Sequence record: PZ544694.1
Reading direction: 5' to 3' (one strand)
DNA length: 56,700 bases
Origin: a phage
Positions 1 through 51,606 of the stretch are shown piece by piece. Position 1 is the stretch's first letter, and every line of letters starts with the position of its first letter. The notes beneath the pieces were generated by a model. The model did not search any database. It was given only the letters and a program-made list of their open reading frames with translations, and was not told the origin of the DNA. The position numbers and the translations under genes are program-made.

Positions 1-276
1 ATGAGCCGTCCATGCGATGAAACTCTCGCAGTATTAAAACAGCGATATGTTGAAGCGAGCCGAGCATATCACGATTTACAAATCGGGGTGTCTGGCCGAG
101 TGTTTGTCGACCAAAATAGCGAACGTGTTGAATTCACCGCAGCTAACCGTCAGAGTCTACTTGCGTATCTTACCGGGCTACAACGTCAGATTTGTCAGTT
201 AGCCCCGAACGACCCGATCTGTAATTGCGGTGTCGGCTTCGGGTCAATTTCCGCACCACTAGGGGCGTTATTCTAA
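1..276 (+). CDS. head-tail joining protein, lambda gpW-like
   Basis: 91 aa; segment HDLQIGVSGRVFVDQNSERVEFTAANRQSL aligns with lambda gpW ([29 protein letters not shown]); next to portal and terminase ORFs. Confidence 0.6.
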   Translation: MSRPCDETLAVLKQRYVEASRAYHDLQIGVSGRVFVDQNSERVEFTAANRQSLLAYLTGLQRQICQLAPNDPICNCGVGFGSISAPLGALF

Positions 277-1401
277 ATGAAATCAATCAAGGAACTTGTC
301 GCGAGAAGTGCGAACAATCCCCCGGAGGTTAAAGCACAAGGCGGTTATGAGGGTGCTCAGCGAAACTCGCGAGAAATGTATCGCTGGACGCCCGCAATAG
401 TCTCTCCGGATCAGGAATTAGACGGCGGACAAAAAGAATTAGCCGATGCCCGGGTTCAAAACGTTATCCAGAATGACGGTTTTGCGTCCGGTGCCGTATC
501 GATACATCGAGATAATATCGTCGGCTCTCAATACATGCTAAACGCTAAGCCGAATTTGTCCGCGCTAGGACTAAAAGGAGCTGACGCCGAAGCATGGGAG
601 GAGGAGTTTCAAGACGTCGTAGAGTCGAAATTCAACGTGGCTGCGGACTCAACGGAAAACTGGTTTGATGTCACACGACGCAATTCTTTTACCGGCTTGG
701 TTCGCCTCGCGGTGGCCCAAGCACTGATTTCCGGTGAAGTATTGGCATCGGCAGAATGGTCAAGAACCGCAGGTCGTCCTTTCAATACGGCCATTCAAAT
801 GATTAGCCCGCATCGACTGAGCAACCCGAATAACTCGGCCAACACGAAAAACATTCGAGGCGGTGTTCATGTCGATGCGTTCGGACGACCAATCGGGTAC
901 TACATTCAAAACAGTTTCCCGGGAGAGAGTTTAATCAACGGTGAGAATCAAATGTGGCGATATGTTCCATCACGCAAACCGTGGGGACGTCGACAGGTTA
1001 TTCACATCATGGAGCAAATTCTCCCGCACCAAAATCGCGGTATCTCAGACATGGTTGCAGCATTGAAGACCATTAGAATGACTAAGAACTTTCAGGAGAT
1101 AACGCTACAAAACGCGGTAATCAATGCCTCGTATGCAGCCGCAATTGAGTCGGAGCTACCACCGGAAGCCGTTTACGCTCAGTTAGGTTTAGGGCAACGT
1201 CCGTTCGGCGAGATTATCCATGAGATGATGACGAACGCAGCATCGTACTACGCGACTGCTAAAAACATGGAAATAGACGGCGCCAAGATCCCGCATTTAA
1301 TGCCCGGCACTAAGTTGAACTTAAAACCGATGGGGACTCCCGGCGGGATCGGCACGGACTTTGAGGAGTCGTTACTACGCCACATCGCAGCATCGTTATA
1401 A
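277..1401 (+). CDS. portal protein, lambda gpB family (N-terminal ~70 percent only)
   Basis: 374 aa colinear with lambda gpB: SIHRDNIVGS, MISPHRLSNPNN, INASYAAAIESEL, AKIPHLMPG, FEESLLRHIAASL; ends with TAA where homologs continue. Confidence 0.85.
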   Translation: MKSIKELVARSANNPPEVKAQGGYEGAQRNSREMYRWTPAIVSPDQELDGGQKELADARVQNVIQNDGFASGAVSIHRDNIVGSQYMLNAKPNLSALGLKGADAEAWEEEFQDVVESKFNVAADSTENWFDVTRRNSFTGLVRLAVAQALISGEVLASAEWSRTAGRPFNTAIQMISPHRLSNPNNSANTKNIRGGVHVDAFGRPIGYYIQNSFPGESLINGENQMWRYVPSRKPWGRRQVIHIMEQILPHQNRGISDMVAALKTIRMTKNFQEITLQNAVINASYAAAIESELPPEAVYAQLGLGQRPFGEIIHEMMTNAASYYATAKNMEIDGAKIPHLMPGTKLNLKPMGTPGGIGTDFEESLLRHIAASL

Positions 1402-36987: not shown

Positions 36988-37908
36988 ATGTTTTTCTTCG
37001 AGGGGTTCGAACAGTTCGCCTTCGATGGGGATTCCCCGGCTTTCATGCGTAGAGCCGGGTATACCGTTTCGGGGTCTTTCGGCTTCGGCGCAGGACGTAA
37101 GAACGGCGCAAGCGTCCTACTCGGCCGAGGTCGAATATCCCGAGATTTCCCATCTGATACCGGCAATTTTACCGTAGGTTTCGCGTTCAATATGACCACG
37201 AGAGGAAATCTCGTAGGCATCTCAGGCGGGGATAGTACGCTTAAAGTTGGTGTAGACCAGACCACAGGGTTATTACAGTCCGAGGGAGAGTCAGGTTACG
37301 TTATCCCATTGCGTAACAACTGGTACTATCTAGAAGTGGAAGTAAACAAAGACGCAAAGACGGCCGACGTCTATATCAATGGTAAAAAAGACATTACGGT
37401 TTCGATACCAGATGGCGTAGCGACGGCAGACACGCTCACAATAACATTGCGGGACTTCGACGAGTCGGATTTTGCGGACATTCGCTTCGATGACTTGTAT
37501 TATGCCGACACTACGAGAGTCGGGCCTATCACCGTCACTACTCGCGTTCCGACGAAAGACGTATCGAAAGATTGGGGTGTTTCCGGTGGGGAATCTCACC
37601 ATGAGGTCGTAGCTCCCGCACTACCGAACTTAGTTGACCGGTTCATCTATACGGGGACGAATGGTGCTACGGATTCTTTCACCTCGGAAACCGTGCTATC
37701 AGAGGAGACAGAAGTAAAAGGTGTTTCGGTGATAACACTCCTCCGAAAAGCCACCGTAGATCCAGTTAGCGTAGATGTGTTCACAAACGAGCTAGTTAAA
37801 AACGAAGCTACGTTACCTCGTGATTGGGAGTACCGCTACTCAGAACTTGGAGTGCTCCCGGAGCACGTAATACCGGACTCAACTTTCGGAATAACTCTAA
37901 AAGCGTAA
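36988..37908 (+). CDS. putative receptor-binding / tail fiber protein, paralog 3
   Basis: 306 aa; WYYLEVEVNK, VGPITVTTRVPTKDVSKDW, FIYTGTNGATDSF. Confidence 0.5.
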   Translation: MFFFEGFEQFAFDGDSPAFMRRAGYTVSGSFGFGAGRKNGASVLLGRGRISRDFPSDTGNFTVGFAFNMTTRGNLVGISGGDSTLKVGVDQTTGLLQSEGESGYVIPLRNNWYYLEVEVNKDAKTADVYINGKKDITVSIPDGVATADTLTITLRDFDESDFADIRFDDLYYADTTRVGPITVTTRVPTKDVSKDWGVSGGESHHEVVAPALPNLVDRFIYTGTNGATDSFTSETVLSEETEVKGVSVITLLRKATVDPVSVDVFTNELVKNEATLPRDWEYRYSELGVLPEHVIPDSTFGITLKA

Positions 37909-38646
37909 ATGAAAATTGCCCCTAACATGGGGCTTTCCTATGGTTGGGTGAGAGGCGAGGATTTTTGGGGTGGCCCAATGAACGAGACGCTAACCACCTT
38001 AGATACTGTTACGTTTCTACGCCTACAATCTATCACGTTTAGTGCGCCACCGGCTGACGCTAAAAACGGCGACACCTATTTTATCTATAAAAACCCGACT
38101 GGCCCTTGGGTTGGCCAAGAAAGAAAACTGGCCGTATTGATCGACGGCGTGTGGCAATTCATCGAACCCAAACGAGGTTGGCGAGCATTCTTAGACCCGA
38201 CCAGTGAGTTTATCTGGTGGGACGGGGAGACGTGGCGTATTGAGAATACCGGAGTTGACCCGATCAACCCTAACCCATCTCCCGATGTTGTACCTATGGC
38301 GTTTGATGTATCCGCGACTATTTCGGAGAAGATGTATCCATCGGAAGTGCTCGTACACTTGCCAATTATCGACAATATGTACCTACCGGCTAACATGGCA
38401 CAATCTCAATTCGACGCCCGTAGTGCTTTTCTCGATAAAGCTAAGTTCACTGTGCAGAGAAATAACCAAACTGTCGGCACATTCACTGTCGATCGGGGGC
38501 AATATAACGCCACTTTCGTGACGTCTGGTAGCGTTGCCGTGAGATTTTTCAAAGGTGACAGGCTGACAATCTTAGCTCCGGTTGATACAATCGACTCAGC
38601 CGTTAACTTCGGCTTTATTATTAGATTAATGATTCAGGGGGCTTAA
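37909..38646 (+). CDS. DUF2793-like tail fiber-associated protein
   Basis: 245 aa; GDTYFIYKNPTGPWVGQ...IDGVWQFIEPKRGWRAF...WWDGETW aromatic/Gly pattern. Confidence 0.4.
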   Translation: MKIAPNMGLSYGWVRGEDFWGGPMNETLTTLDTVTFLRLQSITFSAPPADAKNGDTYFIYKNPTGPWVGQERKLAVLIDGVWQFIEPKRGWRAFLDPTSEFIWWDGETWRIENTGVDPINPNPSPDVVPMAFDVSATISEKMYPSEVLVHLPIIDNMYLPANMAQSQFDARSAFLDKAKFTVQRNNQTVGTFTVDRGQYNATFVTSGSVAVRFFKGDRLTILAPVDTIDSAVNFGFIIRLMIQGA

Positions 38647-41600
38647 ATGGGGCTACACATGGGGATCGGCCGTGGCCCTATTGATGAATTGATGGAAATC
38701 GAGGTCGGCGGAAGAACCGCTTGGCGTGGTTCCGTTAAAGAGTCCTCGTTCTTTCGGATACGGGCTGAAAATCTTTTCGGGGGTAAGAAAGCGGAGGGAG
38801 GCATTGAGGGTGGTTTCGAACTCTACATGGGCGATAAGGATCAGGTCGTTAGCGACAAACTTAAATCCATGTTGGGCGGTGGGAGCCAACCGGAGTTTCG
38901 CGGAGTAGCTACCGGCTATTTCGATGGTTTAGTGTCGGCCATGAACCCATACCCGAAAGCGTGGCGATTTAAAATACGTCGCATCTTAAAAGGTTGGGAC
39001 GGTGGGGTGTGGTATCCGGAAAAAGCGGTCATAGAACTTACCGGCCACGATGACGAGGGGAAAGAGTATCCCATCAAGGCGATGAACCCGGCTCACGTTA
39101 TTTACGAGTGTATGACAAACCGAGATTGGGGCCGAGGTATCTCTCGTGACCTACTGTTTGACTCGGAGTTCCGAAAGGTGGCCGATACGTTGTTCGAGGA
39201 GGGGTTCGGGATCTGTATTGCGTGGAGACGCCAAGACACCCTAGAGTCTTTTATCCAGAATATACTTAACCACATTTCAGGCGTGTTATACGTCGATAAG
39301 TTTACCGGTACTTTCAAACTCAAGTTACTTCGTAATGACTACGATGCGGATAACTTGCCGGTGTACGGTTTTGAGAGCGGGTTACTACAAATCGAGGAAG
39401 CGACTAACGGCGCAATCCATGGTCTGATGAATGAGTGTGTCGTTAAATGGTTCAACCCGATCGTCGGTAAAGAGAGTCAAGTTCGAGCACAGAACCTAGC
39501 CCTGATTCAGACTTCCGGCGCCATCAAAAGCGACACATTCACGTATGAGGGGGTGCCAACCGCAAAACTGGCCACTATCATAGCAGAAAGAGACTTACGT
39601 GTTGCGTCTACTAACGTCCGCCGGTTCACCCTAGTTTGTGACCGTCGAGCATGGCGAGTACAACCGGGAGACGTTTTGAAGATTTCCGACCCAAAGACAC
39701 GCGGACTTGAGAGCGTAATCGTTCGTGTAGCGGACACAGAGGAGAGTAAACAATCCGATGGTCAGATACGATTATCTTGCGTACAAGACACGTTCTCGTT
39801 CGACCTGAACACGTTTACTGGTGTTCAAGACCCGTCTTTCCCTAAACCGAACCTAAACCCGGTTCCGGCCAGACGTTTAGTTTATGAGGCGACATACGCA
39901 GAATTGTCGTCCCTATTCCCACTAGGAGAGTTTGAGGCCATCAAGCCGTCTTTCGGGTATTTGCGGGCACAGGCGGAAAAAGGCTCACCGGTAACGATGG
40001 CGTTCGAGATGCACGTCCAAAACCCGACCACTGGAAAGTATGAGAAAACAGGTGCGGGGGATTTCACTGCGCTATTCGAATTACCGGTTGACCTTGGATA
40101 TTTAGACCGCTATATCCGAATGAAAGATCCGGTAGATGAAGACTTGATTGAAGTCGGGGACGTTTTTTACGTCAACCAAGAAATAATCATGATCCAGTCT
40201 ATCGAGGAAGACGGGTTAGTCGAAATACGTCGAGGCGTGTACGACACCGTACCTCACCAACACCCCGCTGGCTCCGTAGTGTGGGATATGGTTCAAGGTG
40301 GCGGGCTTGACCTGACAACCCGACAAGCGGGAGAAACCTTATCGGTGAAGATACTCCCATGGACGCTATCGGGTGGGGTTCTCGACGAGTCTAACGTGTC
40401 CGAAGATGAACTGACTTTCAATTACCGATTCTACCGCCCATACGCTCCGGGTAAAGTAGAACTCACCTCAGTGGAAAGCACGGAACCGAACCCTTGGTTT
40501 AATGGCCATGTTTTACGAGCGGACGTCGGAGAGGCCGAAGTGCCTGACGCCTTGACGATAACGTGGGCGCACCGAGATAGACCGATGCAACAAGACAAGC
40601 CTATTTATCATGAGCAAGATAGTATCGGGCCGGAGCCGGGAACGACATACCGAATTAGTATCCTAAACGCTAAGGGTGAAGTAATCCGCAGAGAAAACGG
40701 GATTACCGGCACACAGTTTGTCTACACTTACGGCCAAGCGAGCCTAGATTTGAACGTGGAAGCGTCAGCCATAGATCCGGTTGCTGGGTACTTGAGATTA
40801 GAGTCTATGCGCGACGGGTTCGAATCGTGGCAAAACTACTTAATACCGATCACCGTTTTCAAGAAACCGCCTCAAATGGCGTATGTTAGTTTCTTAAACC
40901 AATCTGTCGCTCAGGTGTCCGATAAAATCGACCCCGAAGATAAAGACGGAGAGACGGCCGTAGACGCAAAAGCCATGGTTAGTTTTGTCAACCAATCCGT
41001 AGCACAGGAGAGCGAAGATCTATCTTCCGGTGGCGGGGGCCTACCTGATGGCGTGAATGTTAGCTATGTGCGACAACCGGTTTCGCAACAAGGCAAATTA
41101 GTTCCTATCGTAGATAGCCAACTGTTTGAGTTCCCTTACTTAATGTTGCTACGCCATGGGTTCGAACCGTCCGCCTCACAATTCTTCGCTACGGTAGCTA
41201 GACCGTCAGACCGTGTAACCGACGGGTACGATTTGTTCGAGAAAGAGAAGAACGATACAGAGTACGTGAACCAAGGGGCGCAACCGTGGACGCCGTGGGG
41301 GATTCTGTCTAAGGCAATCTCATATCTGGATAATGAGATAATCCTCGATGCTACGTCGGATTCTGACGGGGTTCCTACTGAGGACGCGATGCCGGGCGAC
41401 GTGATTTTCGTCGGAGCCGAAGCGATGGTGATCCGGGGCATCGATGGTAAACGTATTACGGTTGGCCGTGGTTGTGTTGATACAATCCCCGCACTTCATG
41501 GGAAAGGTCAAGTTGTGTGGTTTGTCGACAAACAAATAGCTTCCGGGCAACGTAAATATCACGACGGCCAGACTTGCGTAGTTGCCGTAAGGCCTCATTC

Positions 41601-42426
41601 TCTCGCAGCAGAAATCCAGCCTAAAGACGTGGTAAACAAACAACTGGAAGTGAAACTACGCGCGGATAGACCATATCCACCGGGGTTCTTGCTCGGCAAC
41701 GGTGAGCACTTTTTCAAAGGGTGGGACGCACTGGCCGATAACTTTGACTACTATGACCCGCAAGGCAAAGACTTAGTGATGACGTGGGCGCACCGTAACC
41801 GAGTTCGTCAAGGGGAAACCGTGTTAGACCATCTTGATGTGGGACAACAACGGCCAAGCGACGTAATGTATCGAGTGTGGATCGGGAAACGATATACTCC
41901 TAGATACAGCAATCGCACAGTTACTATCACCATGGGGACGTATTATACTCGCGACGCAGGAATGACGATCAAGGCCGAAGACTTACACGCGTTCGGCAGA
42001 CGAGTAGGGATCTTGACGGAATCCACCGGCTACGTCTATGTTTCGATCACGGTATCCGCTGTCGATGAAAACGAGCTTAGTAGCTGGCAAGGATATAATA
42101 CTCAGTGTAAAGTACCCTCAATTCCGGCCAAGCGAGATGTTGACCCCAATCCGGGAAGACCTGACCCGGGAACTGGCGGTGGCGAAACTGGCGGTGGCGG
42201 AACTGGCGGTGGTACGAACCCCGGCAATCCAGATCCGGGTCAGCCTGATAGACCGAACCCCGACCCCGACCCGGGCAACCCTGATCCAGAACCTAATCCG
42301 GGCAACCCTGACCCTGATCCGGTCGAGCCTCCGCCACCGTTGGTTGTTGCCGGTTGGTCAAACAAGTGGGATCATGATTGGGCGGAACGACTACCAGACC
42401 AAGACGTCAAAGAGGATACTGAATAA
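38647..42426 (+). CDS. host specificity / central tail fiber protein (lambda gpJ-like) with Gly/Pro-rich C-terminal tract
   Basis: 1259 aa; region GISRDLLFDSEF...GFGICIAWRRQDTLESFIQNI colinear with lambda J (GMGKRLGAADVDKW...); C-terminal PNPGRPDPGTGGGETGGGG... at about 42145-42345. Confidence 0.6.
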   Translation: MGLHMGIGRGPIDELMEIEVGGRTAWRGSVKESSFFRIRAENLFGGKKAEGGIEGGFELYMGDKDQVVSDKLKSMLGGGSQPEFRGVATGYFDGLVSAMNPYPKAWRFKIRRILKGWDGGVWYPEKAVIELTGHDDEGKEYPIKAMNPAHVIYECMTNRDWGRGISRDLLFDSEFRKVADTLFEEGFGICIAWRRQDTLESFIQNILNHISGVLYVDKFTGTFKLKLLRNDYDADNLPVYGFESGLLQIEEATNGAIHGLMNECVVKWFNPIVGKESQVRAQNLALIQTSGAIKSDTFTYEGVPTAKLATIIAERDLRVASTNVRRFTLVCDRRAWRVQPGDVLKISDPKTRGLESVIVRVADTEESKQSDGQIRLSCVQDTFSFDLNTFTGVQDPSFPKPNLNPVPARRLVYEATYAELSSLFPLGEFEAIKPSFGYLRAQAEKGSPVTMAFEMHVQNPTTGKYEKTGAGDFTALFELPVDLGYLDRYIRMKDPVDEDLIEVGDVFYVNQEIIMIQSIEEDGLVEIRRGVYDTVPHQHPAGSVVWDMVQGGGLDLTTRQAGETLSVKILPWTLSGGVLDESNVSEDELTFNYRFYRPYAPGKVELTSVESTEPNPWFNGHVLRADVGEAEVPDALTITWAHRDRPMQQDKPIYHEQDSIGPEPGTTYRISILNAKGEVIRRENGITGTQFVYTYGQASLDLNVEASAIDPVAGYLRLESMRDGFESWQNYLIPITVFKKPPQMAYVSFLNQSVAQVSDKIDPEDKDGETAVDAKAMVSFVNQSVAQESEDLSSGGGGLPDGVNVSYVRQPVSQQGKLVPIVDSQLFEFPYLMLLRHGFEPSASQFFATVARPSDRVTDGYDLFEKEKNDTEYVNQGAQPWTPWGILSKAISYLDNEIILDATSDSDGVPTEDAMPGDVIFVGAEAMVIRGIDGKRITVGRGCVDTIPALHGKGQVVWFVDKQIASGQRKYHDGQTCVVAVRPHSLAAEIQPKDVVNKQLEVKLRADRPYPPGFLLGNGEHFFKGWDALADNFDYYDPQGKDLVMTWAHRNRVRQGETVLDHLDVGQQRPSDVMYRVWIGKRYTPRYSNRTVTITMGTYYTRDAGMTIKAEDLHAFGRRVGILTESTGYVYVSITVSAVDENELSSWQGYNTQCKVPSIPAKRDVDPNPGRPDPGTGGGETGGGGTGGGTNPGNPDPGQPDRPNPDPDPGNPDPEPNPGNPDPDPVEPPPPLVVAGWSNKWDHDWAERLPDQDVKEDTE

Positions 42427-42636
42427 ATGGAAAAAAGAATTTACATCAAACATGTTCGTCAAGCCGGATATTGTGCTAACGGCGTAGGCCGGGTATTAGA
42501 GCGGATCGGTGTTGACGAAAGAGACTTTTTACAGAACGGGTTGCTGATCACCCCGCAACTGGCTAACAACACAAACCCGATGATACGACGTGTGGTAGAA
42601 ATCGCACTCGCTGATAGTGAGGTAAAACGTGGGTAA
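42427..42636 (+). CDS. hypothetical protein (tail module)
   Basis: 69 aa frame-1 ORF. Confidence 0.3.
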   Translation: MEKRIYIKHVRQAGYCANGVGRVLERIGVDERDFLQNGLLITPQLANNTNPMIRRVVEIALADSEVKRG

Positions 42637-42873
42637 ATGGGTATCGAATGGGCTTTAGCAGCCATGGTCGCAAGTTTGCTGATCTCAATTGCGTTAACCC
42701 CGAAACCGGCTTCGGCAAAACCGCCGACGTTTGATGACTCTAACATACCTCAGATTGAAGACGGCACACCGCAAACCGTATATTTCGGGGAGTGCTGGAC
42801 AGGAGATTGGCAGGTGTTAGGTTACGGCGATATGAGAACTTCAAAAATCAAAGCAAGTCAGGCTAAAAAATAA
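42637..42873 (+). CDS. hypothetical small protein with N-terminal TM (tail module)
   Basis: 78 aa; TM LAAMVASLLISIAL; PQTVYFGECWTGDWQVLGYG motif. Confidence 0.3.
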   Translation: MGIEWALAAMVASLLISIALTPKPASAKPPTFDDSNIPQIEDGTPQTVYFGECWTGDWQVLGYGDMRTSKIKASQAKK

Positions 42874-43689
42874 ATGGCATATAATCAACTAGAAATATCC
42901 ACTGATGACGGTCAGCCGATTTACTTATATGAGTTTCGGCTGAACGACAATTATTGGCGATACACTTCCGCTAAAAAAGATATCCAGATGTTAGGGCAAA
43001 CTTGGCTTGGCACCCCCATGGAAGATGACGGGATACGCCAAACAAGTGACGCCCAATCGGATAGCCTAACCATCTTAATGCCTCAGTCGGCGGTAATAGT
43101 CGATTTGTTCCGGGGCACACCACCAATCAATGCAGTAACGTTAAAGATCCGCAGGTTCCACCGTGGCGATACCGAAGCAGCCGTCTGTTACGTCGGCGAA
43201 GTGCTACAACTAGATACTGCTAACGCTGCCGCAGCTAAGATTACGTGTAACACCCTTTCCGCGTCGATGGAGCAAAACGGTTTACGTTTAGCGTGGTCTC
43301 GCTCGTGCCCCCACGCGTTATACAATTCGTCATGTGGCGTAAACCCGGCCGAGTTTATGGTCGAAGCTACGATACAAAGCGTCGGGTCAAACAATATCAT
43401 GTCTAAGGATTTAGCACCTTACGGGGAATCCTATTTCGCCGGCGGATACATCGAATGGGTAGATAAACTCCGCGGGGTGGAGAGACGCGCTATTCAGGCA
43501 CACAGCTACGACTCAATAGAAATTTTCGGAACCGTGGGCGGAATTACCGGCGGAATGATCATAAAGGTATTTCCCGGCTGTCCTCGAACCGTGGCATCTT
43601 GCCGAGATAAGTTTAATAACCTCGCTAATTATGGCGGAATACCATCAATGCCGGGGCGTTCTCCGTTTGACGGAAATCCGGTTTACTAA
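42874..43689 (+). CDS. DUF2163-domain distal tail protein (GTA gp13-like)
   Basis: 271 aa; conserved Cys pattern SCPHALYNSSCG and GCPRTVASCRDKFNNLANYGGIPSMPG. Confidence 0.6.
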   Translation: MAYNQLEISTDDGQPIYLYEFRLNDNYWRYTSAKKDIQMLGQTWLGTPMEDDGIRQTSDAQSDSLTILMPQSAVIVDLFRGTPPINAVTLKIRRFHRGDTEAAVCYVGEVLQLDTANAAAAKITCNTLSASMEQNGLRLAWSRSCPHALYNSSCGVNPAEFMVEATIQSVGSNNIMSKDLAPYGESYFAGGYIEWVDKLRGVERRAIQAHSYDSIEIFGTVGGITGGMIIKVFPGCPRTVASCRDKFNNLANYGGIPSMPGRSPFDGNPVY

Positions 43690-45378
43690 ATGGCACTATT
43701 AGGATTACGGCCGTTTAGGGAGACAAATTCCGAGGGGTTGGCGCCAGAACAGAGCGCCCGCCTTTCGGGGGCGTACCAAATATTCGCCCAAGAAATCTAT
43801 GACAAGCCCGACGTCGGTCAAAAATATTACGGGTCTAAATGGACTCGTTTTCCGGCGGGGGAATATACGATATCGATGATCGCTAACGGCTTCGGCGGTG
43901 TTGGTCTTGAGGGAACCGTCATCGCGGATAATGTTAGTAACGGTGGGTCTTGGACTACGCCCACTACCGCAAAATTTTCGATAACGGCCAACGCGGTAAT
44001 TAAATTCGATATCTGGTATACGGCCAACGCGACTAATGAGCCAGCGTATTTCATCTACGTGATACATGATAGTACCGGAGAAGTATTTGAAGTATCGAGA
44101 GCGAATGAGTATATAGGGAATATCGTTCCTATCGAAATGGAAGATATGCCCCCACGACCTCCGTTCTCGGTAGACAATCGACTACAATTGCCGGTGTTCC
44201 TACCGAAACCAAACTGGAAAGATGGCGTAGTTGAGGGGCTATCGTGGCTCACTGACGTTCTTCAATCAGAAACGGGCGCGGAACAACGTAGACGACTAAG
44301 AGAGCAACCGAGACAACACTTGACGGCGAGTTTTGCTAGTTTCGGAGTAACGAGAAACCTAATTGACGGATACCTTACGGCCGTTGGCCCTAACGAGGGT
44401 TTAGTCCCCTTATGGTTTTACGAAGAAGTCGTAGACAACAAACTAACCGTGGCTACCGTGGAAGTGTTGGGGGACTTTAAAGACATACCGCTACGCGTTA
44501 ATGATACGGTGATCATTAGAGAACCTTACGACATGCTCGCTTTTGAGTTGAATGTCATCAAAGAATACTCCGACAATAAAATCGTATTACGGTATGGTTT
44601 ACAAAGAGATTTCATTCTCGGTAGCACAATAACGCCTATGCGACAATCTCGCGTGGAACTAACGGCCGAAGTATCGCAACTCACGGATCAAGTTAGCACG
44701 ACTCAACTACAATTCAGCGTAACCGAAGACCCGACAATATTTGAGAAGTGGGACGCTCCGGTTTACAAAAATACCGGATTGCGTGTGTTCACTATGGAAC
44801 CTAACTTTAGGGATATCGCATTTACATACGGGTCGAATGCAGTATTTTTCGATGGTCAGGTGGGCGGTATTTCAATGGCCTATCCGGGAGGTCAAGCGCA
44901 ACAATGGGAACGACTCGGGTTCCATATTAACGGCCGTGAGGATATGCGTAAATTCGTAGAGATGATCCACACAATGAATGGCCGGTGGAAATCATTTCAC
45001 TTACCGACGTACCGAGATGAATTTGAACTGATACAAGATATCAATACCAACGACGGGGCGCTTAGAGTACACCCATCAGGCTATACGCTTTACGGCCAAA
45101 GTAGCCAGAACACCCGAAAACACATCATGATCGAGTTGTTTGACGGCCGAGTTTTTTACAACACGATAATCTCAAGTAGAACTATGCGAGGGGAGGAGTG
45201 GCTATTCTTAGCAGAGACACTACCTAACATTGCAATGAGTGACGTTCGTCGTGTATGCTATATGCCGATAACTCGCTTAGATATAGATTCTATTGAGTTC
45301 CAACGATTAACTGATAGTCGGGGAGTAAGCACAGTTACGCTCGTATTCGTAAATATTCCGATGGAGCGAACCGTTTAG
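43690..45378 (+). CDS. putative distal tail / tail tip assembly protein
   Basis: 562 aa ORF between tape measure and DUF2163 protein; no motif recognised. Confidence 0.3.
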   Translation: MALLGLRPFRETNSEGLAPEQSARLSGAYQIFAQEIYDKPDVGQKYYGSKWTRFPAGEYTISMIANGFGGVGLEGTVIADNVSNGGSWTTPTTAKFSITANAVIKFDIWYTANATNEPAYFIYVIHDSTGEVFEVSRANEYIGNIVPIEMEDMPPRPPFSVDNRLQLPVFLPKPNWKDGVVEGLSWLTDVLQSETGAEQRRRLREQPRQHLTASFASFGVTRNLIDGYLTAVGPNEGLVPLWFYEEVVDNKLTVATVEVLGDFKDIPLRVNDTVIIREPYDMLAFELNVIKEYSDNKIVLRYGLQRDFILGSTITPMRQSRVELTAEVSQLTDQVSTTQLQFSVTEDPTIFEKWDAPVYKNTGLRVFTMEPNFRDIAFTYGSNAVFFDGQVGGISMAYPGGQAQQWERLGFHINGREDMRKFVEMIHTMNGRWKSFHLPTYRDEFELIQDINTNDGALRVHPSGYTLYGQSSQNTRKHIMIELFDGRVFYNTIISSRTMRGEEWLFLAETLPNIAMSDVRRVCYMPITRLDIDSIEFQRLTDSRGVSTVTLVFVNIPMERTV

Positions 45379-48300
45379 GTGGCAAATAGAGACGTAGAAC
45401 TACGGATCAGAGCCAGAGATGATAGTCAGAAAACGCTAAAGCAAGTATCAAAGACGTTAGATGACTTAACATCGGCGCAGACCCGTAACGCGGACGCAGC
45501 GAAACGAGGTGACGCTTCGGTCAGAGAACTAGAACAACAATATAAGAAATTAGAGAATGCCGGACAACAATTGCTCCGGCTTAATTCTTTAACAGAGATG
45601 TTTACCCGCCAGAAAGAGGCGCTTAATAAGGTAAACACTCAATTGGCCGAAGCCAAGAAAAAACATAGTGACCTTTCCTCCGCTATGAACGGTGCGTCTA
45701 ATGTCACTAAGAAAATGCAGTCCGACTTAGACAAAGCAGAACGAGCGGTAAAGCGTTTGACCGACCAACAAGACCGGTCGACCAAGAGCGTACAAAAGAC
45801 CGCCAAGGAACTATCTCGTTTCGGGATTTCGTCGAATGATATTGCGACCGCACAGAAAAGAATACGTGATGAAGTAACCCGGACAAACCAAGCGCTAGCC
45901 CGCCAAGAGAAGATCATAGGTGACGTGCCGACTCGCGCACAGAAAGCCCACGCCCAACTACTAGCAAGTTTGAAGTTACAAGCAAACCAACTGGTAGCGA
46001 GCACGAAAGGCTATCAAACACTTGGCCGAGTGATCTCGTCTTTACCGTCAATGTCCGGGCAAATGGCCGACTTGATGGCTCCGGCAGAAGCAGCTAGGCG
46101 TAAGATAGGTACACTAGAAAAACAGATAAACGATTTAGCTACGGCATCAAAACGTTGGCGCAAAGACGCTAGCGGTATGAATTCAGACCTAAAGGCCCTA
46201 GAAGCCTCCGCGAAATCGGCGATAGGAATGTCCCGCATGATCGAGACTTTCCAACGTCAAACCGAAGCGGTGAGAAAAGCGAGAGCGGAATACCGATCAG
46301 CACAGGCCGACGCTAAGAACTTAGCAAATCAGGTAAGACAAGCCGGCACAGCGAATGCCGAGATGGGCGCAAAACTTCAAGCGTCTAATGCTCGACTACG
46401 CGAAGCAAGCCAAGCGTTACGGAATGAAACGGCTTCCGCTAGACAGACTCAATCCGCGTTACGGTCAGCCGGTATTGATACTAGAAACCTAGGAGCGGAA
46501 CAACAACGACTCCGGGGATTAGTACAAAACTCGGTGGGCGGTATTAATAACCTCCGAGCATCGTTAGAGCGGTTGTCCGGTAGCGCCCGATCTTCCGGCA
46601 AAGCCTTTTCATTCTTCCGAGACGAGGGACGTACCACGTTGTCATTCATGCAGAGAATGCGTGGTGACGTTCTTAGTCTGGCGTCAGCCTACATCGGGGT
46701 TCAAGGCGCCGTAGACATGGCGAAAGGTGCGGTAGAGGCCTTTAAGGTTCAACAACAAGCCATGGTTAAAATCGGAACGGTGGTGGGGTCTGGCCCGGAA
46801 GAACGAGCGAAAGAATGGGAGTATATGTTAGGCCTCTCAGATGCGCTCGGTATTAAAATTGAAACACTAAGTAAGGCATATACCAAGTTTGCGGTATCGG
46901 CTAAGGAAGTAGGCCTATCGCAGAAAGAAGCTAAATTTATCTTTGAGAATATCGCAAAGACGGCTCGCGTATATCACCTATCCGACGATGATATGAACGG
47001 CGTGTTCTTGGCCTTGGAACAAATGCTCTCGAAAGGACAAGTTTATGCAGAGGAGTTGAGGCAACAATTAGGTGAACGTCTCCCCGGCGCCGTAGCGATG
47101 TTCGCGAAAAGTTTAGGTAAGACCATACCCGAATTTACAAAGATGATGGAGAATGGCGAGGTAGACGCCAGATCCGTGATTAACTTCGCGAACGAACAAG
47201 GCAAAGCTATCGAAGCGCAACTCGCCGAAGCGCAAAAAGGCGTAGATGCGATCGAAGCTAGAGCATCAAATGCGATGTTCAACCTCAAACTGGCGATATC
47301 AAAATCCGGGTTCATCGAAGCGTATACCTCGATGTTGGAGAAACTGACGGAGTTCATCACATCAGACCGAGGTAAAGAAGCAGCCGAAAAACTCGGAACA
47401 GCGTTCTCCGCGATTGCCGACGGGGTGATATGGGCCGTGGATAATGTAGACCTACTAATAGACGCCCTAAAGGTCTTAGCATCGATAAAGGTGATAAAGA
47501 TCTTAGTATCCACCGGCCGGAATTTGATATCCGTATTCAAGGAAGTTAAGGGCGTCATTTCAACGGTATTGCCTCTAGGAAAACGCTTGGTAGGAGGTAT
47601 CGGATCTCTAATTGCTAGCACAGGACTACTCACCGGTGCGCTGAAACTTCTACTAAGAGCGATACCGTTTGTCGGGGTGGCCCTGTTAGCGTGGGATATG
47701 GTTTCCATTCTCTACGAGAACAACGAAGCGTTCCGGAAGTTTTGCGACGAGACGATCGAGCGGGCTAAGTACCTCGGCAAGATGCTAATCGATTATGCGA
47801 AAGTACCGGGTACTGCGATATATGATTTATTAGTGTCGTTCGTCAGGCCAATAACTACGTTGTTCGGTGATTCCATCAAACAAGTTGGCAAGTGGTTGGC
47901 AGACCTGTTAGGAATGTTACCTGTGGTGGGGGACTCACTAAGCGCATGGGTCATGGGTATTACTGACGACCTGACGAAAGCTGACCGTGAGATATTCGAG
48001 TCTTCGAATAAGCTCAGCAAAGATATCGTAGACAATTGGGATAAGATGACCGGCGACGTATCTTATGTCCACGAAAAAGCCATGGAAACGGTGGCAGACA
48101 ATGCCGGAAAGACCGCCGGAGCCGTAATCGGTTCAATGGAACTGGTGAGCAAGGCTGCAGAACAGTTAGCCAAGAAACAAAGCGGATTCGAGTTTCAGAA
48201 AGACCCCGGAACGGGAATAGGTCAAAGAGACCTCGACATGCGTGCGTTGAAAAAGGAGATCGAGAAACGCCAGAACGCGGAGGAGAAAGCCGACCTAGCA

Positions 48301-49710
48301 GCCAGAAAAGCAGCACAACGTAAGAGCCTCGCAGGACGCCTACAAATCATCGATGAAGAATACGCTAAGATGTATGAAAAAGCGAAAGCCATCGGTGGCA
48401 AAGAGGGCGACGAGATGAAAAAGCAAATCGACGACCTAGTAGCTCACGCGAAACGGTCAGAGACGATGCTATTCAATGCTCAACAAAGTTCTAGCGGTGG
48501 CCTAGATAAGCGTAAGCGCAAGATCGATGCTATCACGCAAGCGCTTGAAAGAATGAACGCAGAAGTTAACAGACGTCAAACTAAGGCTGATCCGGAGTCG
48601 TCTCTCGATGACCGAATTAACGCGGAGATCGAGAAGTCAAACGTTAAGATTAATGCGTTGAAAAAAGAGGCCCTAGCCATAGGCGGACAAGAGGGCAAAC
48701 AACTGGCCGACAACTTGGAGAAGCTACGAGAGAAAACAAACCTCTATCTCTCAGAGAAAATGCAAGTCGAGGAGGTTAAGCGTCTTCAAGATGCAGTTAA
48801 TGCGCAATTAGAGATCAAAAAGAACAAGATTGAAGAAATCAACGCCAAAAGAAAAGCGGGCTTGATTGATGACCAGCAACAAGCTGACGCGATCAAGGCC
48901 ATAAATGAGGGGTCAATAGGGGCGATATCTTCATCACTAGACGCTCTTAGCAACCAAGTGGCGCAGTCATCTACATTATTCAGTGAAGAAGAACTAGTCC
49001 GGATAACAACTGGTATTAGTAAAATACGTTCCGAACTACAAGGCGTTGAGGGTGAATTCACTAAACTAGACAGCCAAGTTGTAAACGGGGTTCTAGGAGG
49101 TTTCGACACGGCGATCAACTCGGCTTATGATGGGATCGTTAAAGTCGCAACTGGGGCAGAAAGTATCGGAGACGCATTCGCAAACCTAGGCGTCGCAGTG
49201 GCTCAGTTTTTCGCAGATTTCCTAAAACAAATAGCTATGGCAATAATGCAACAAATGGTACTCAATGCGATAGCCGGCATGGGTGGAGGGGTAGGAGCAG
49301 CAGCAGTATCGATGGGCGGTGTGGTAGCCCCGGTAAAACACTCCGGCGGTGCGGTCGGGAGCGGAGGTAGGTCTAGAACCGTGGCTCCCTCTACATTTGC
49401 ATCGGCTCCGAAGTTCCATAACGGGGGAATGCCCGGAATTAAGCCTAACGAAATACCGACAATATTAGAGCGAGGGGAAGAAGTCTTATCCAAGAACGAC
49501 CCTAGAAATATCGCAAATGGCGGACAGGCAGCAAGACCGGGAGGACAAGCCGGCCCGACAAACATCAAACTAGTAGCAGTTGATGACCGTAGCAAGATAC
49601 CGGAAGCCATGGCAACGGCCGAGGGCGAGCAGGTTATGATTGTTAACTTAAACCGAAAATCACCCGCGATCCGTAGCATATTAAATCGCGGAAGCTCTAA
49701 GAGGACATAA
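45379..49710 (+). CDS. tail tape measure protein
   Basis: 1443 aa, GTG start; long coiled-coil N-terminal half, Gly/Ala-rich hydrophobic segments; position between chaperone and distal tail genes. Confidence 0.8.
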   Translation: MANRDVELRIRARDDSQKTLKQVSKTLDDLTSAQTRNADAAKRGDASVRELEQQYKKLENAGQQLLRLNSLTEMFTRQKEALNKVNTQLAEAKKKHSDLSSAMNGASNVTKKMQSDLDKAERAVKRLTDQQDRSTKSVQKTAKELSRFGISSNDIATAQKRIRDEVTRTNQALARQEKIIGDVPTRAQKAHAQLLASLKLQANQLVASTKGYQTLGRVISSLPSMSGQMADLMAPAEAARRKIGTLEKQINDLATASKRWRKDASGMNSDLKALEASAKSAIGMSRMIETFQRQTEAVRKARAEYRSAQADAKNLANQVRQAGTANAEMGAKLQASNARLREASQALRNETASARQTQSALRSAGIDTRNLGAEQQRLRGLVQNSVGGINNLRASLERLSGSARSSGKAFSFFRDEGRTTLSFMQRMRGDVLSLASAYIGVQGAVDMAKGAVEAFKVQQQAMVKIGTVVGSGPEERAKEWEYMLGLSDALGIKIETLSKAYTKFAVSAKEVGLSQKEAKFIFENIAKTARVYHLSDDDMNGVFLALEQMLSKGQVYAEELRQQLGERLPGAVAMFAKSLGKTIPEFTKMMENGEVDARSVINFANEQGKAIEAQLAEAQKGVDAIEARASNAMFNLKLAISKSGFIEAYTSMLEKLTEFITSDRGKEAAEKLGTAFSAIADGVIWAVDNVDLLIDALKVLASIKVIKILVSTGRNLISVFKEVKGVISTVLPLGKRLVGGIGSLIASTGLLTGALKLLLRAIPFVGVALLAWDMVSILYENNEAFRKFCDETIERAKYLGKMLIDYAKVPGTAIYDLLVSFVRPITTLFGDSIKQVGKWLADLLGMLPVVGDSLSAWVMGITDDLTKADREIFESSNKLSKDIVDNWDKMTGDVSYVHEKAMETVADNAGKTAGAVIGSMELVSKAAEQLAKKQSGFEFQKDPGTGIGQRDLDMRALKKEIEKRQNAEEKADLAARKAAQRKSLAGRLQIIDEEYAKMYEKAKAIGGKEGDEMKKQIDDLVAHAKRSETMLFNAQQSSSGGLDKRKRKIDAITQALERMNAEVNRRQTKADPESSLDDRINAEIEKSNVKINALKKEALAIGGQEGKQLADNLEKLREKTNLYLSEKMQVEEVKRLQDAVNAQLEIKKNKIEEINAKRKAGLIDDQQQADAIKAINEGSIGAISSSLDALSNQVAQSSTLFSEEELVRITTGISKIRSELQGVEGEFTKLDSQVVNGVLGGFDTAINSAYDGIVKVATGAESIGDAFANLGVAVAQFFADFLKQIAMAIMQQMVLNAIAGMGGGVGAAAVSMGGVVAPVKHSGGAVGSGGRSRTVAPSTFASAPKFHNGGMPGIKPNEIPTILERGEEVLSKNDPRNIANGGQAARPGGQAGPTNIKLVAVDDRSKIPEAMATAEGEQVMIVNLNRKSPAIRSILNRGSSKRT

Positions 49711-49869
49711 ATGGTACAGGCCGAAGTAGACATTGTTATCAAGCGAGTTAATAATCAAATAGCAACGGAAGCAATATTAATGCAACAATGTATCGCCTCC
49801 GCCGTATGGGGGAAAGAGGGCGCTAAGATTTTCAACAAGACGATAAAGGGGCTACAAGGTGGCAAATAG
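49711..49869 (+). CDS. small ORF in tape-measure/chaperone intergenic (gpT-like) region
   Basis: 52 aa; first 19 nt identical to last 19 nt of ORF 49870-49965. Confidence 0.25.
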   Translation: MVQAEVDIVIKRVNNQIATEAILMQQCIASAVWGKEGAKIFNKTIKGLQGGK

Positions 49870-49965
49870 ATGCGGAGAAAATCAGGGAGGGGGTTAGCCT
49901 CCTCCTGTCCCACGGTCATACGTTCGCACGACACTACCCGATCGGCATGGTACAGGCCGAAGTAG
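49870..49965 (+). CDS. small ORF in gpT-like region
   Basis: 31 aa; read from frame 1. Confidence 0.2.
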   Translation: MRRKSGRGLASSCPTVIRSHDTTRSAWYRPK

Positions 49966-50418
49966 ATGTCATTATCCGCATTCGAACCAACGAAAAAAAG
50001 CGTAACTATCAATGATTCTATTTCCATCGAAGTTCGAGGCTTATCACTAAACGATATCTCTCGATTAATCCAGTTACACGCCCAAGATTTAGACGGCGTA
50101 TTCGACTTATATTCACAAGGAGTTGGGGCCGGGAAAGAATTAGATAGTTTAGTATTCGCTAACTACTTGCTCACCCTGATATCCTCCGCACCGGGGCTAA
50201 TTAGTAGCATTATCGCGGTTTCTGCGGACGAACCTACCATGGCCGATAAAGCCTCCCTCCTACCGATAACGGCGCAATACGATTTAATGATGGCCGTATT
50301 TGAGTTAACTTTCTCGGACATTGCTACGCTAAAAAAGATCATGGCGAACGTAATGGAGAAAGTGGGAGAAGCGAACGGGAAAACAGTTCCGGCCAAGAAA
50401 GCCAAGAAAAAGGGTTAA
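49966..50418 (+). CDS. tail assembly chaperone (gpG-like)
   Basis: 150 aa acidic protein between major tail and tape measure; ends KKAKKKG with AAGAAAAAGGG stretch. Confidence 0.45.
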   Translation: MSLSAFEPTKKSVTINDSISIEVRGLSLNDISRLIQLHAQDLDGVFDLYSQGVGAGKELDSLVFANYLLTLISSAPGLISSIIAVSADEPTMADKASLLPITAQYDLMMAVFELTFSDIATLKKIMANVMEKVGEANGKTVPAKKAKKKG

Positions 50419-51606
50419 ATGGCACAACCATGTACAAGCAGCAACGACCAGAATTACGTCGTAGGGCGTGGTCGACTATTCTTCGACAAGTTCGTCGACG
50501 GTTGTAACAACTCCGAGCATGGCGAAATGTATTTCGGTAATACCCCGGAGTTATCACTATCTTCTGACACAGAAACGTTAGACCATTATTCGTCTGATTA
50601 TGGTATGCGTGAAAAAGACCTAACCGTGATGCTAGAGCATTCTCGTTCTGGTTCATTCACAACCGACCATATCTCCGCGGACAACCTAGCGTTGTTCTTC
50701 CTAGGGGACAAAACGCATGTTACTCAGACTCAGGTGACAGGCAACAAAGAAGTATTCGAAAACGTGGCATTAGGTCGTCACTACCAACTCGGCACAACGG
50801 ATATCCTACCGATGGGCGTTCGTAACATCGAGAATCTGTTAGTTTACGTGGCGGACGGTGATACAACCATCAACCTAGGCGATGGCGATGTGTCAACTAT
50901 CGACGGTGTAACTAAAGTAAATTTTGCCGGCCAGATCGACTACGACCTAGAGTTAGGACGTATCTATATCGAACCTACCGCTACTGAAATTAAAAACGGT
51001 CAGCAGTTAGTAGTCCAGTATGACATCGAGGCGCAGGCTCGCGAAATCATCATTGCCCGTAACCGCATGATCTACGGCTCACTGCGATTCTTGTCAGCTA
51101 ACCCGGTAGGTAGCGCGAAAGATTTCTACTGGCCCAAAGTCATGTTACAACCTGACGGAGACTATGCACTTAAAGGTGACGACTGGCAACAAATTGGGTT
51201 TACCTTTAGCGTTCTTCGCAAAAACCGCAAAGTGGAGCAGGTTTACATCGAGTCAGCGATGGCAAGAGCATCTACGCCCCCAAAGCCTGATCCGGAGCCG
51301 GAATACCGTCTAACTCTTAGCGTTACTCCGACCTCCGGTACTGAGGGTGATACTTTAGTAGCTAAGGTAAAAGCTACGAAAGACGGCGCTCCGAGAAAAA
51401 CAAAAGTGGTCTTTGCCTTTAGCTCCGACGAGGTGGAACTGGCCGATAGTCACCCTGACGGTGTAGAGACAGACGGGGTTACGGGAGAGGCCACTGTGAA
51501 TCTTACGGTAGGCCCCGTGTCCGGTTCCGCGACAAAAGTTACGATAACAGTAACCGATAGCGACGGAGGAAGTGCGACGGAGGAAGTTACCGTCAACCCA
51601 AAGTAA
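50419..51606 (+). CDS. major tail protein with C-terminal Ig-like domain
   Basis: 395 aa; C-terminal ~100 aa beta-rich Ig-like (TLSVTPTSGTEGDTLVAKVKAT...VTITVTDSDGG); position as in lambda gpV. Confidence 0.5.
   Translation: MAQPCTSSNDQNYVVGRGRLFFDKFVDGCNNSEHGEMYFGNTPELSLSSDTETLDHYSSDYGMREKDLTVMLEHSRSGSFTTDHISADNLALFFLGDKTHVTQTQVTGNKEVFENVALGRHYQLGTTDILPMGVRNIENLLVYVADGDTTINLGDGDVSTIDGVTKVNFAGQIDYDLELGRIYIEPTATEIKNGQQLVVQYDIEAQAREIIIARNRMIYGSLRFLSANPVGSAKDFYWPKVMLQPDGDYALKGDDWQQIGFTFSVLRKNRKVEQVYIESAMARASTPPKPDPEPEYRLTLSVTPTSGTEGDTLVAKVKATKDGAPRKTKVVFAFSSDEVELADSHPDGVETDGVTGEATVNLTVGPVSGSATKVTITVTDSDGGSATEEVTVNPK

Follow-up and report, generated by a model that had tools for sequence, protein, structure and literature searches.

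The tail-tip module of the Chi-like siphophage E21 and its relatives in Chi, JBD30 and RcGTA

Background

A sequence-only reading of the window (the whole stretch of 56,700 nucleotides of phage DNA analysed here) had described positions 42637-45378 as a mosaic tail, in which lambda-type head and tail-shaft genes are joined to a distal tail protein of the gene transfer agent (GTA) type. The question raised by this locus is whether such a joint exists. We conclude, at a probability of about 0.93, that this region forms the tail-tip (baseplate core) module of E21, a Chi-like siphophage that has already been published. Its ORFs are ordinary and already known, with orthologs in the published cryo-EM structure of phage Chi's tail tip (PDB 8VJH), reportedly the work of Sonani et al. 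2024. Chains of that solved complex are matched by all of the E21 tip proteins but gp50, and close relatives of all but one of the tip proteins are present in published cryo-EM structures from Chi, JBD30 and RcGTA. The evidence for E21 is that of sequence and orthology, since the structures come from these three relatives and not from E21 itself.

Identity of the window and direction of its tail genes

The window is 100% identical to E21 (MN604053/NC_052983; Casjensviridae, Lavrentievavirus), a published Escherichia phage. It is built of 85 CDSs set end to end in a single frame, with no spacers between them and all turned to the plus strand, and does not represent natural contiguous DNA. Segment-by-segment mapping identified the tail-module segments as the reverse complements of E21 minus-strand CDSs, in ascending record order. 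Because the minus-strand CDSs were turned to plus while the record order was kept, the order of the tail module in the window is the reverse of the order of its transcription, which on the E21 minus strand runs from the tape measure gene gp54 through gp53, gp52, gp51, gp50 and gp49 to gp48 (Table 1). The tape measure gene occupies positions 46997-51328 of the record's minus strand, and gp53 (45303-46991, minus) lies directly downstream of it, across a spacer of 5 nt.

The spacer-free CDS format flips minus-strand modules in this way, and functions that are guessed from gene order can then be misleading. The ORF for gp52 had been placed after a tape-measure block; the 1259-aa ORF on that side (38647-42426) is instead the gpJ-like Phage-tail_3 protein, and the tape measure gene is the one at 45379-49710 (PF20155). 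The apparent joint beside the tape measure is spurious, a product of the flipped order of the CDSs and of the mis-called gene. The three ORFs of 42637-45378 themselves were confirmed, with the boundaries shown in Table 1.

Table 1. Features of the E21 tail-tip module and adjacent genes, in window coordinates
Feature	Position	Strand	Evidence
DUF2793 tail-fibre/receptor-binding protein (gp48)	37909..38646	+	PF10983 3.3e-23
Baseplate hub protein 2/central tip protein (gp49), gpJ-/megatron-like, 1259 aa as called	38647..42426	+	PF13550
Small conserved protein (gp50), 69 aa; ortholog of Chi gp29	42427..42636	+	phrog_1196
Small tail-tip protein (gp51), 78 aa, hydrophobic N-terminus	42637..42873	+	8vjh_U, phrog_1180
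Baseplate hub protein 1 (gp52), 271 aa	42874..43689	+	PF09931, PF09356, TIGR02218; Chi gp27
Span of four putative metal/Fe-S ligand codons in gp52	43306..43602	+	alignment with JBD30, RcGTA
gp52 cysteine codons Cys145; Cys154; Cys236; Cys243	43306-43308; 43333-43335; 43579-43581; 43600-43602	+	
Distal tail protein (gp53), 562 aa, tandem-duplicated type	43690..45378	+	orthology to Chi distal tail protein
gp53 N-terminal lectin/PA14-like domain, aa ~1-169; putative glycan-binding or fibre-docking module	43690..44196	+	
gp53 first tube-like module with inserted beta domain, aa 170-356	44197..44757	+	hhalign self-duplication; JBD30 gp49 alignment
gp53 second tube-like module with inserted beta domain, aa 357-562	44758..45378	+	hhalign self-duplication; JBD30 gp49 alignment
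Tape measure protein (gp54), 1443 aa	45379..49710	+	PF20155 TMP_3 9.4e-27; phrog_2335 E = 0

Head and tip as a shared layout of the Chi-like family

The assignment of the head genes to lambda-type families was borne out, with gpW, a lambda-family portal, an S49 protease, gpD, gpE and a gpA terminase all above the Pfam gathering scores (PF05876 plus PF20454, PF02831, PF05136, PF01343, PF02924, PF03864) and the major capsid protein matching the lambda gpE chain 7vi9 at E = 1.4e-27. The head and tube proteins are also orthologous to those of Chi and YSD1. No support was found for a lambda-type tail shaft: the tube protein is without a Pfam match, and its sole PDB sequence matches (E <= 0.001) are to Chi and YSD1.

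Chi is a Salmonella phage of the same family, the Casjensviridae, to which E21 belongs by the taxonomy of its record and by its synteny with Chi, and the gene order of the two phages is identical from the portal to the lysis genes, E21 being colinear with Chi genes 14-36. The Chi tip genes encode the distal tail protein gp26, BH1P gp27, tail assembly protein 1 gp28, gp29 and the BH2P/minor tail protein gp30, and the lengths of the proteins are nearly equal (E21/Chi 562/562, 271/272, 78/76 and 1259/1296 aa). The differences are that Chi belongs to the genus Chivirus and E21 to Lavrentievavirus, that divergence is greatest in the distal tail protein, and that Chi gp29 has 79 aa versus 69 aa for E21 gp50. 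Among the proteins of the head and shaft, amino acid identity to Chi is 47% for the protease, 60% for the major capsid protein, 50% for the tube and 44% for the tape measure (gp54 versus Chi gp25), and among those of the tip it is 38% for the distal tail protein, 53% for the hub (gp52 versus Chi gp27), 42% for the J-like protein (gp49 versus Chi gp30) and 50% for the fibre (gp48 versus Chi gp31). All eight of these pairwise comparisons fall between 38 and 60%, with no break between head and tip.

These values bear on the possibility of a recent mosaic, i.e. that recombination, at a joint near 42.6-45.4 kb, brought a distal tail gene of GTA origin into a lambda-like phage. Such an event would be in keeping with the lambda Pfam families of the head genes, with the matches of gp52 to the GTA-associated PF09931, PF09356 and TIGR02218, and with the finding that none of the lambda tip families in Pfam (gpM, gpL, gpK, gpI) matched gp52, nor for that matter gp53, gp51 or gp50, even at E <= 10. 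It is nevertheless disfavoured, and must be considered quite improbable, in view of the identical genes in identical order in Chi, the similar divergence of head (47-60%) and tip (38-53%) without a step change, and the Chi/JBD30 type of six of six tip proteins and not of one alone. Since the pairing of head and tip is common to so distant a member of the family as Chi, it is not a recombination joint specific to E21, and since JBD30 and RcGTA carry the same family of tips on different heads, any exchange of modules must be ancient. The family assignments that underlay the idea of a mosaic tail (lambda-type head, DUF2163 hub) thus stand, and the term "mosaic" itself is misleading, as Chi has the same combination in the same order. 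The layout of a lambda-type head plus a GTA/JBD30-type tip is conserved in the Chi-like family and is not a local mosaic, and the GTA-type kinship extends over the entire tip (the distal tail protein, the hub, the J-like protein and the DUF2793 fibre) and is not that of one inserted gene.

The distal tail protein

The 562-aa ORF, for which the sequence-only reading had seen no obvious homolog, has close ones, with E-values of 3e-145 for phrog_1082, 2.7e-118 for the distal tail protein of Chi (8vjh_B) and 3.1e-32 for that of JBD30 (8RK3). Its product, gp53, contains two tail-tube-like beta-sandwich modules per chain, and when aa 170-356 were aligned with aa 357-562 by hhalign, the internal duplication was recovered with a probability of 89.5% (E = 2e-6, 173 columns). 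The first module aligns to domains III and V of JBD30 gp49 and the second to domains IV and VI (PMC11445458).

It might be argued that this ORF encodes no distal tail protein, and is rather a receptor-binding protein, a depolymerase or an orphan unrelated to known tail components, as it has no Pfam or NCBIfam match above threshold and its N-terminal domain is similar to folds of the lectin, carbohydrate-binding and PA14 kinds, which are also present in tailspikes. We regard this as very improbable for a protein that is homologous over its full length to a chain solved as a distal tail protein. As to the family of gp53, its score for PF09343 (DUF2460) lies under the gathering score (15 vs 30.4 bits, E = 0.017, residues 175-216 only), and a 32-sequence gp53 profile retrieved no RcGTA chain from the PDB. 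By the curated test gp53 works like a distal tail protein, yet is not a DUF2460 member.

By analogy with solved tips, gp53 is predicted to be trimeric and to form a pseudo-hexameric ring that would serve as an adaptor between the 6-fold (C6) tube and the 3-fold (C3) tip. A trimeric distal-tail ring that bridges a C6 tube and a C3 tip has been described for JBD30 (PMC11445458), and for Chi in the summary given in PMC12724387. A further and tentative proposal is that aa ~1-169 of gp53 are a functional glycan-binding receptor module and, separately, that gp50 is an uncharacterised tip-assembly factor; we consider this possible, if rather unlikely. If it were true, the N-terminal module would provide the Lavrentievavirus phages with a second, fibre-independent step of adhesion (to LPS, capsule or glycosylated flagellin) and would contribute to their host range.

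The DUF2163 baseplate hub protein

The assignment of the ORF for gp52 to DUF2163 held. PF09931 (formerly DUF2163) scores 31.2 bits against a cut-off of 26 (2.8e-7), with residues 24-157 of gp52 covering positions 25-160 of the 160 in the profile (the N-terminal attachment domain), and the C-terminal PF09356 (Phage_BR0599) scores 59.4 bits against 22.9 (4.5e-16). The protein also passes the NCBIfam equivalog TIGR02218, "phage/gene transfer agent baseplate hub protein", at 94 vs 80.5 bits. In the PDB it matches Chi gp27 (8vjh_D, 3.1e-100), JBD30 (8rk3_g, 1.4e-49), RcGTA g13 (6tba/6teh, 2.6e-6) and 8gtc_P (5.4e-6), and its gene sits between the distal tail gene and the J-like tip gene, as in Chi. 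Gp52, with RcGTA g13, Chi gp27 and JBD30 gp50 as its relatives, fills the role of lambda gpL, the iron-sulfur cluster of which was reportedly described by Tam et al. 2013.

The conserved cysteine pattern that had been noticed in this ORF is real, in that four cysteines in two pairs (Cys145, 154, 236 and 243) have aligned counterparts in Chi gp27, JBD30 gp50 and RcGTA g13. In JBD30 gp50 a putative metal is coordinated by Cys147/156/238/245 (PMC11445458), and the cysteines of RcGTA g13 hold an iron-sulfur cluster (PMC7296036); from these relatives we infer that the gp52 cysteines may likewise ligate a metal or an Fe-S cluster.

The central tip protein, the fibre and the small tip proteins

Gp49 matches PF13550 (Phage-tail_3) at 3.8e-7, phrog_6284 and the "minor tail protein" of Chi (8vjh_A) both at E = 0, and gp53 of JBD30 (8rk3_o) at 1.6e-116. 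With the RcGTA megatron it shares only the generic Phage-tail_3 domain, and the equivalog for that protein (NF048004) was not reached (17 vs 800 bits). The gene for gp48 is transcribed right after that for gp49. DUF2793, the family of gp48, is a conserved domain of the RcGTA tail fibre Rcc00171 (PMC5026251), and in the JBD26/DMS3-type phages a DUF2793 gene always follows directly on the gene for the central fibre (bioRxiv 10.1101/150227).

Of the two small proteins, gp51 matches Chi "tail assembly protein 1" (76 aa, 8vjh_U) at E = 2.1e-30 and phrog_1180 at 1.5e-31, and this Chi ortholog is included in the deposited tail-tip model. Chi is credited, in remarks within a paper on phage T1 (PMC11945409), with a lambda/T1-like insertion-protein feature that props the tape measure's C-terminus, and we infer that this feature is the gp51-type chain. 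Gp50 matches phrog_1196 at 1.2e-19 and, by tblastn, 146 phage records, Chi gene 29 among them; it has no PDB sequence match and no meaningful Pfam or NCBIfam match, and its single-sequence AF2 model has a pLDDT of 63, too low for a fold search. Gp50 is presumably a tail-tip assembly factor, and as such could replace lambda gpK or the RcGTA g14 peptidase.

Comparison with other tail tips and a predicted architecture

The baseplate of the Pseudomonas phage JBD30 (PDB 8RK3/8RK6/8RK7; Valentova et al. 2024, PMC11445458) comprises gp49, gp50, gp53 and a DUF2793-type receptor-binding protein. It is like that of E21 in its tandem-duplicated distal tail protein gp49, trimeric in JBD30 and with two beta-sandwich domains that each bear an oligosaccharide-binding insertion, in its DUF2163 upper baseplate protein gp50, in its J-like hub and, by gene numbering, in two small ORFs (its gp51 and gp52) between hub-1 and hub-2. 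It differs in that no sequence alignment with E21 is possible over the first ~170 residues of the distal tail protein, the JBD30 N-termini wrapping its own pilus-binding fibres, in that the hub has 735 aa versus 1259 aa, and in that its receptor is the type IV pilus.

In the tail tip of RcGTA (Rhodobacter capsulatus; g11-g15; PDB 6TBA/6TEH; Bardy et al. 2020, PMC7296036) the order of tape measure, distal tail protein, hub and J-like "megatron" is the same as in E21. The hub g13 and gp52 share their Pfam and NCBIfam family, four cysteines of g13 hold an Fe-S cluster, and there is a DUF2793 fibre (PMC5026251). However, RcGTA has as its distal tail protein a single-module DUF2460 hexamer of about 209 aa, unlike the 562-aa double module of E21, a 150-aa peptidoglycan peptidase (g14) stands where E21 has the 78-aa and 69-aa proteins, and RcGTA is not a replicating phage. 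The parallel of the tip module (tape measure to DUF2793 fibre) with g11-g15 plus Rcc00171 (PMC7296036, PMC5026251), together with the mention of GTA in the name of TIGR02218 and some near-identical records that label the hub gp52 "gene transfer agent", might suggest that the cluster derives from a GTA or a defective prophage and not from a functional phage. The likelihood of this is practically negligible: it is refuted by the identity of the record as E21, an isolated, ICTV-classified phage of 58.5 kb that encodes a DNA polymerase, helicase, terminase, endolysin and spanins, and it is opposed by the low score for the GTA_megatron equivalog and by a head of lambda/Chi type. The lambda tip (gpM/gpL/gpK/gpI/gpJ; PDB 8IYK, 8K35, 8XCK) differs in that gpM is a single-module hexamer, unlike gp53, and in that a gpK-like NlpC/P60-MPN protein is absent from the E21 tip.

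Drawing on the solved tips, one may picture three tandem-duplicated copies of gp53 beneath the last ring of the tube, where the change from 6-fold to 3-fold symmetry would take place, with their lectin/PA14-like N-terminal domains pointing outward. Three copies of gp52, each with its four-cysteine metal or Fe-S site, would be wedged among three gp49 subunits, and the gp52 and gp49 trimers would jointly build a closed cone, with gp48 and downstream proteins as the probable fibre and receptor-binding apparatus.

Annotation of the tail-tip genes

The corrective value of these assignments lies in more fitting names for gp53 (distal tail protein), gp52 (baseplate hub protein 1) and gp51 (tail-tip lumen protein), which GenBank/RefSeq list as "tail assembly protein" and "tail assembly chaperone". 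The start of gp49 seems to be 14 codons off, with a predicted N-terminus of MGKFKKATAGYSYY... from a GTG at record position 44015. ORFs on the opposite strand of 42637-45378 (e.g. 43705-44067, 120 aa) are antisense to strongly supported structural genes.

The tail-tip module and its identity

The feature at 42427-45378 is an already known and structurally characterised tail-tip module of a published genome. This stretch is 100% identical, in four separate pieces, to the minus strand of Escherichia phage E21 (MN604053.1 / NC_052983.1; 58,536 bp; Casjensviridae, Lavrentievavirus), and ~26 other records, Proteus phages for the most part, are 95-99% identical to it. The host given for E21 is enterotoxigenic E. 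coli. The hosts named for records that are 97-98% identical across the stretch are Proteus, Salmonella, Enterococcus durans, Staphylococcus ureilyticus and Pseudomonas aeruginosa; tail-tip genes this similar in hosts so diverse suggest that some records are contaminated or give the wrong host.

The sequence-only reading was confirmed in part in its observations and supported in part in its interpretation. The three ORFs that it described at 42637-45378 are present, while the 1259-aa "tape-measure block" that it set before the hub gene is the gpJ-like protein gp49 (E = 0 to the "minor tail protein" of Salmonella phage Chi), the true tape measure being gp54. With the exception of gp50, all E21 tip proteins have a matching chain in the tail-tip structure 8VJH, which PMC11945409 identifies as Chi.

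Tail-tip genes of phage E21 in transcription order, with other structural genes (window positions; identity is to the Chi counterpart)
Gene or product	Window	Length (aa)	Family	Identity (%)
gp55 region, Pre_tape_measure	49711-50418		PF23789	
gp54 tape measure	45379-49710	1443	PF20155, phrog_2335	44
gp53 distal tail protein	43690-45378	562	phrog_1082	38
gp52 hub-1	42874-43689	271	PF09931, PF09356, TIGR02218	53
gp51 small tip protein	42637-42873	78		
gp50	42427-42636	69		
gp49 J-like hub-2	38647-42426	1259	PF13550 Phage-tail_3, phrog_6284	42
gp48 fibre	37909-38646	245	DUF2793	50
Tandem paralog	36988-37908	306	phrog_2448	
Tandem paralog	36004-36987	327	phrog_2448	
Tandem paralog	34987-36003	338	phrog_2448	
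Portal, first window piece	277-1401		lambda-family portal	
Portal, second window piece	56182-56700		lambda-family portal	
Protease				47
Major capsid protein				60
Tube				50

Hub and distal tail proteins

The proposal that gp52 is a DUF2163 protein with a conserved cysteine pattern was borne out. This protein passes the cut-offs of PF09931 (renamed from DUF2163 to "baseplate hub protein, N-terminal attachment domain"; 31.2 bits, cut-off 26), PF09356 Phage_BR0599 (59.4 bits, cut-off 22.9) and NCBIfam TIGR02218, "phage/gene transfer agent baseplate hub protein" (94 bits, equivalog cut-off 80.5). Its residues Cys145, 154, 236 and 243 align with cysteines of Chi gp27, of gp50 of Pseudomonas phage JBD30, in which Cys147/156/238/245 coordinate a putative metal (PMC11445458), and of g13 from the gene transfer agent of Rhodobacter capsulatus (RcGTA), in which four conserved cysteines serve as ligands of an iron-sulfur cluster (PMC7296036). 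In all of its testable defining features, gp52 belongs to the family represented by RcGTA g13.

The 562-aa ORF, said to have no obvious homolog, matches phrog_1082 at 3e-145 and has 56 relatives in the database, among them one that carries the name "distal tail protein"; its PDB matches are the Chi distal tail protein (8vjh_B, E = 2.7e-118) and JBD30 gp49 (3.1e-32), and it scores below the DUF2460 cut-off (15 bits vs 30.4). Within gp53, the segments 170-356 and 357-562 share homology (hhalign probability 89.5%, E = 2e-6, 173 columns), in line with what has been published on JBD30 gp49, whose subunits each have two beta-sandwich domains, with an oligosaccharide-binding insertion on each, and which therefore docks as a trimer on the hexameric tube ring, reducing the symmetry from six-fold to three-fold (PMC11445458). 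PMC12724387 summarises a proposal that gives the Chi distal tail protein this symmetry-adaptor role as well.

By homology to these structures, a gp53 trimer would form the adaptor ring, and three gp52 subunits, each with a putative Cys4 metal or Fe-S site, would stabilise the trio of gp49 subunits by which the cone is closed. The lumen would be occupied by gp51 and the tape measure's C-terminus, predicted to be the first to leave on triggering, and gp48 and the downstream paralogs would make up the fibre apparatus.

Small tip proteins, gp49 and the fibre genes

Since gp51 matches the 8VJH chain "Tail assembly protein 1" (E = 2.1e-30), its ortholog belongs to the deposited Chi tail-tip model. 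According to the T1 paper (PMC11945409), Chi has, as lambda and T1 do, an insertion-protein feature, a tripod inside the lumen of the tip that holds up the C-terminal end of the tape measure; we infer that this feature is the gp51 ortholog. The neighbouring gp50, located between gp51 and the J-like gene, has conserved counterparts in 146 phage records, Chi among them (gene 29), and matches no solved relative or curated family; the model built from its sequence alone has low reliability (pLDDT 63). Lambda has gpK at this position and RcGTA the g14 peptidase; gp50 is much too small to be either.

The start of gp49 appears to have been called wrongly. A GTG in the same frame, 42 nt upstream and within an overlap with the gp50 end (record NC_052983 minus strand 43974-44015), would add MGKFKKATAGYSYY, which agrees with the N-terminus of Chi gp30, MGSKSKKVTVGYKYY, and fits 15 otherwise unmatched N-terminal positions of phrog_6284. 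In the RcGTA homolog the N-terminus forms a channel-closing iris (PMC7296036); gp49 scores 17 bits against the megatron equivalog cut-off of 800. The phrog_2448 paralogs, one with a weak Laminin_G_3/ConA-like match, are transcribed right after the fibre gene as positional counterparts of Chi gp32-34, and are likely to be fibre or receptor-binding components.

Is the tail a mosaic?

The sequence-only reading saw a lambda-type head and tail shaft joined to a GTA-type distal tail protein. The family calls for the head and the hub hold, that for the head being supported by Pfam matches to gpA ATPase and nuclease, gpW, the lambda-family portal, S49 protease, gpD and gpE. The pairing, however, is not specific to E21: gp54-gp48 follow the order of Chi genes 25-31 one by one, and from the portal to the lysis genes the structural block is likewise colinear with Chi genes 14-40; Chi and YSD1 both carry orthologs of the capsid and tube proteins, and the identities to Chi show no break between head and tip. 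The simplest reading of these comparisons is that head and tip were inherited together from an ancestor that E21 and Chi have in common. The exchange of modules between lineages is well known and ancient: JBD30 and RcGTA carry the same tip family.

The likeness to RcGTA extends beyond the hub to the whole of g11-g15 (tape measure, distal tail protein, hub, peptidase and megatron; PMC7296036), and the fibre gp48 fits through DUF2793, the conserved domain of the RcGTA fibre Rcc00171 (PMC5026251). Shared membership goes no further: gp53 and gp49 fall short of the DUF2460 and megatron cut-offs, and E21 has a pair of small proteins instead of the g14 peptidase. The E21 tip proteins had no match to the lambda tip Pfam families even at E <= 10; at the level of folds the tip architecture is nevertheless that of lambda (PMC11945409).

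Construction of the window and gene calls

The window is an artificial concatenation and not contiguous genomic DNA. Its 85 ORFs, each starting with ATG, GTG or TTG and ending in a stop, tile frame 1 of the plus strand from base 1 to 56700 with zero spacing, and bases common to overlapping gene calls appear twice. The tail-module segments are exact reverse complements of minus-strand CDSs in ascending record order, stripped of the record's spacers, and window order there is therefore the reverse of transcription order. The E21 record annotates only 64 CDSs, so many window ORFs of 29-59 aa stem from a more permissive gene caller.

The portal gene crosses the origin of the circular record. Its first window piece consists of record 1122..1 (1122 nt) followed by three non-record bases reading as a stop codon, and its second of three non-record bases reading as ATG followed by record 58536..58021 (the last 516 nt); the RefSeq annotation is a 150-aa "portal protein" fragment only.

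Upstream of the tape measure, in the stretch at 49711-50418 (record minus strand 51318-52021), gp55 ends in ...KKAKKKG*, and its -1 frame is open for ~80 codons, up to the tape-measure start. Two mini-ORFs of the window, of 31 and 52 aa, lie within this stretch, the latter being part of the -1 frame, and the equivalent Chi gene 23 is annotated as a two-piece join. The region probably encodes an unannotated tail chaperone made by -1 programmed frameshifting, like lambda G/GT.
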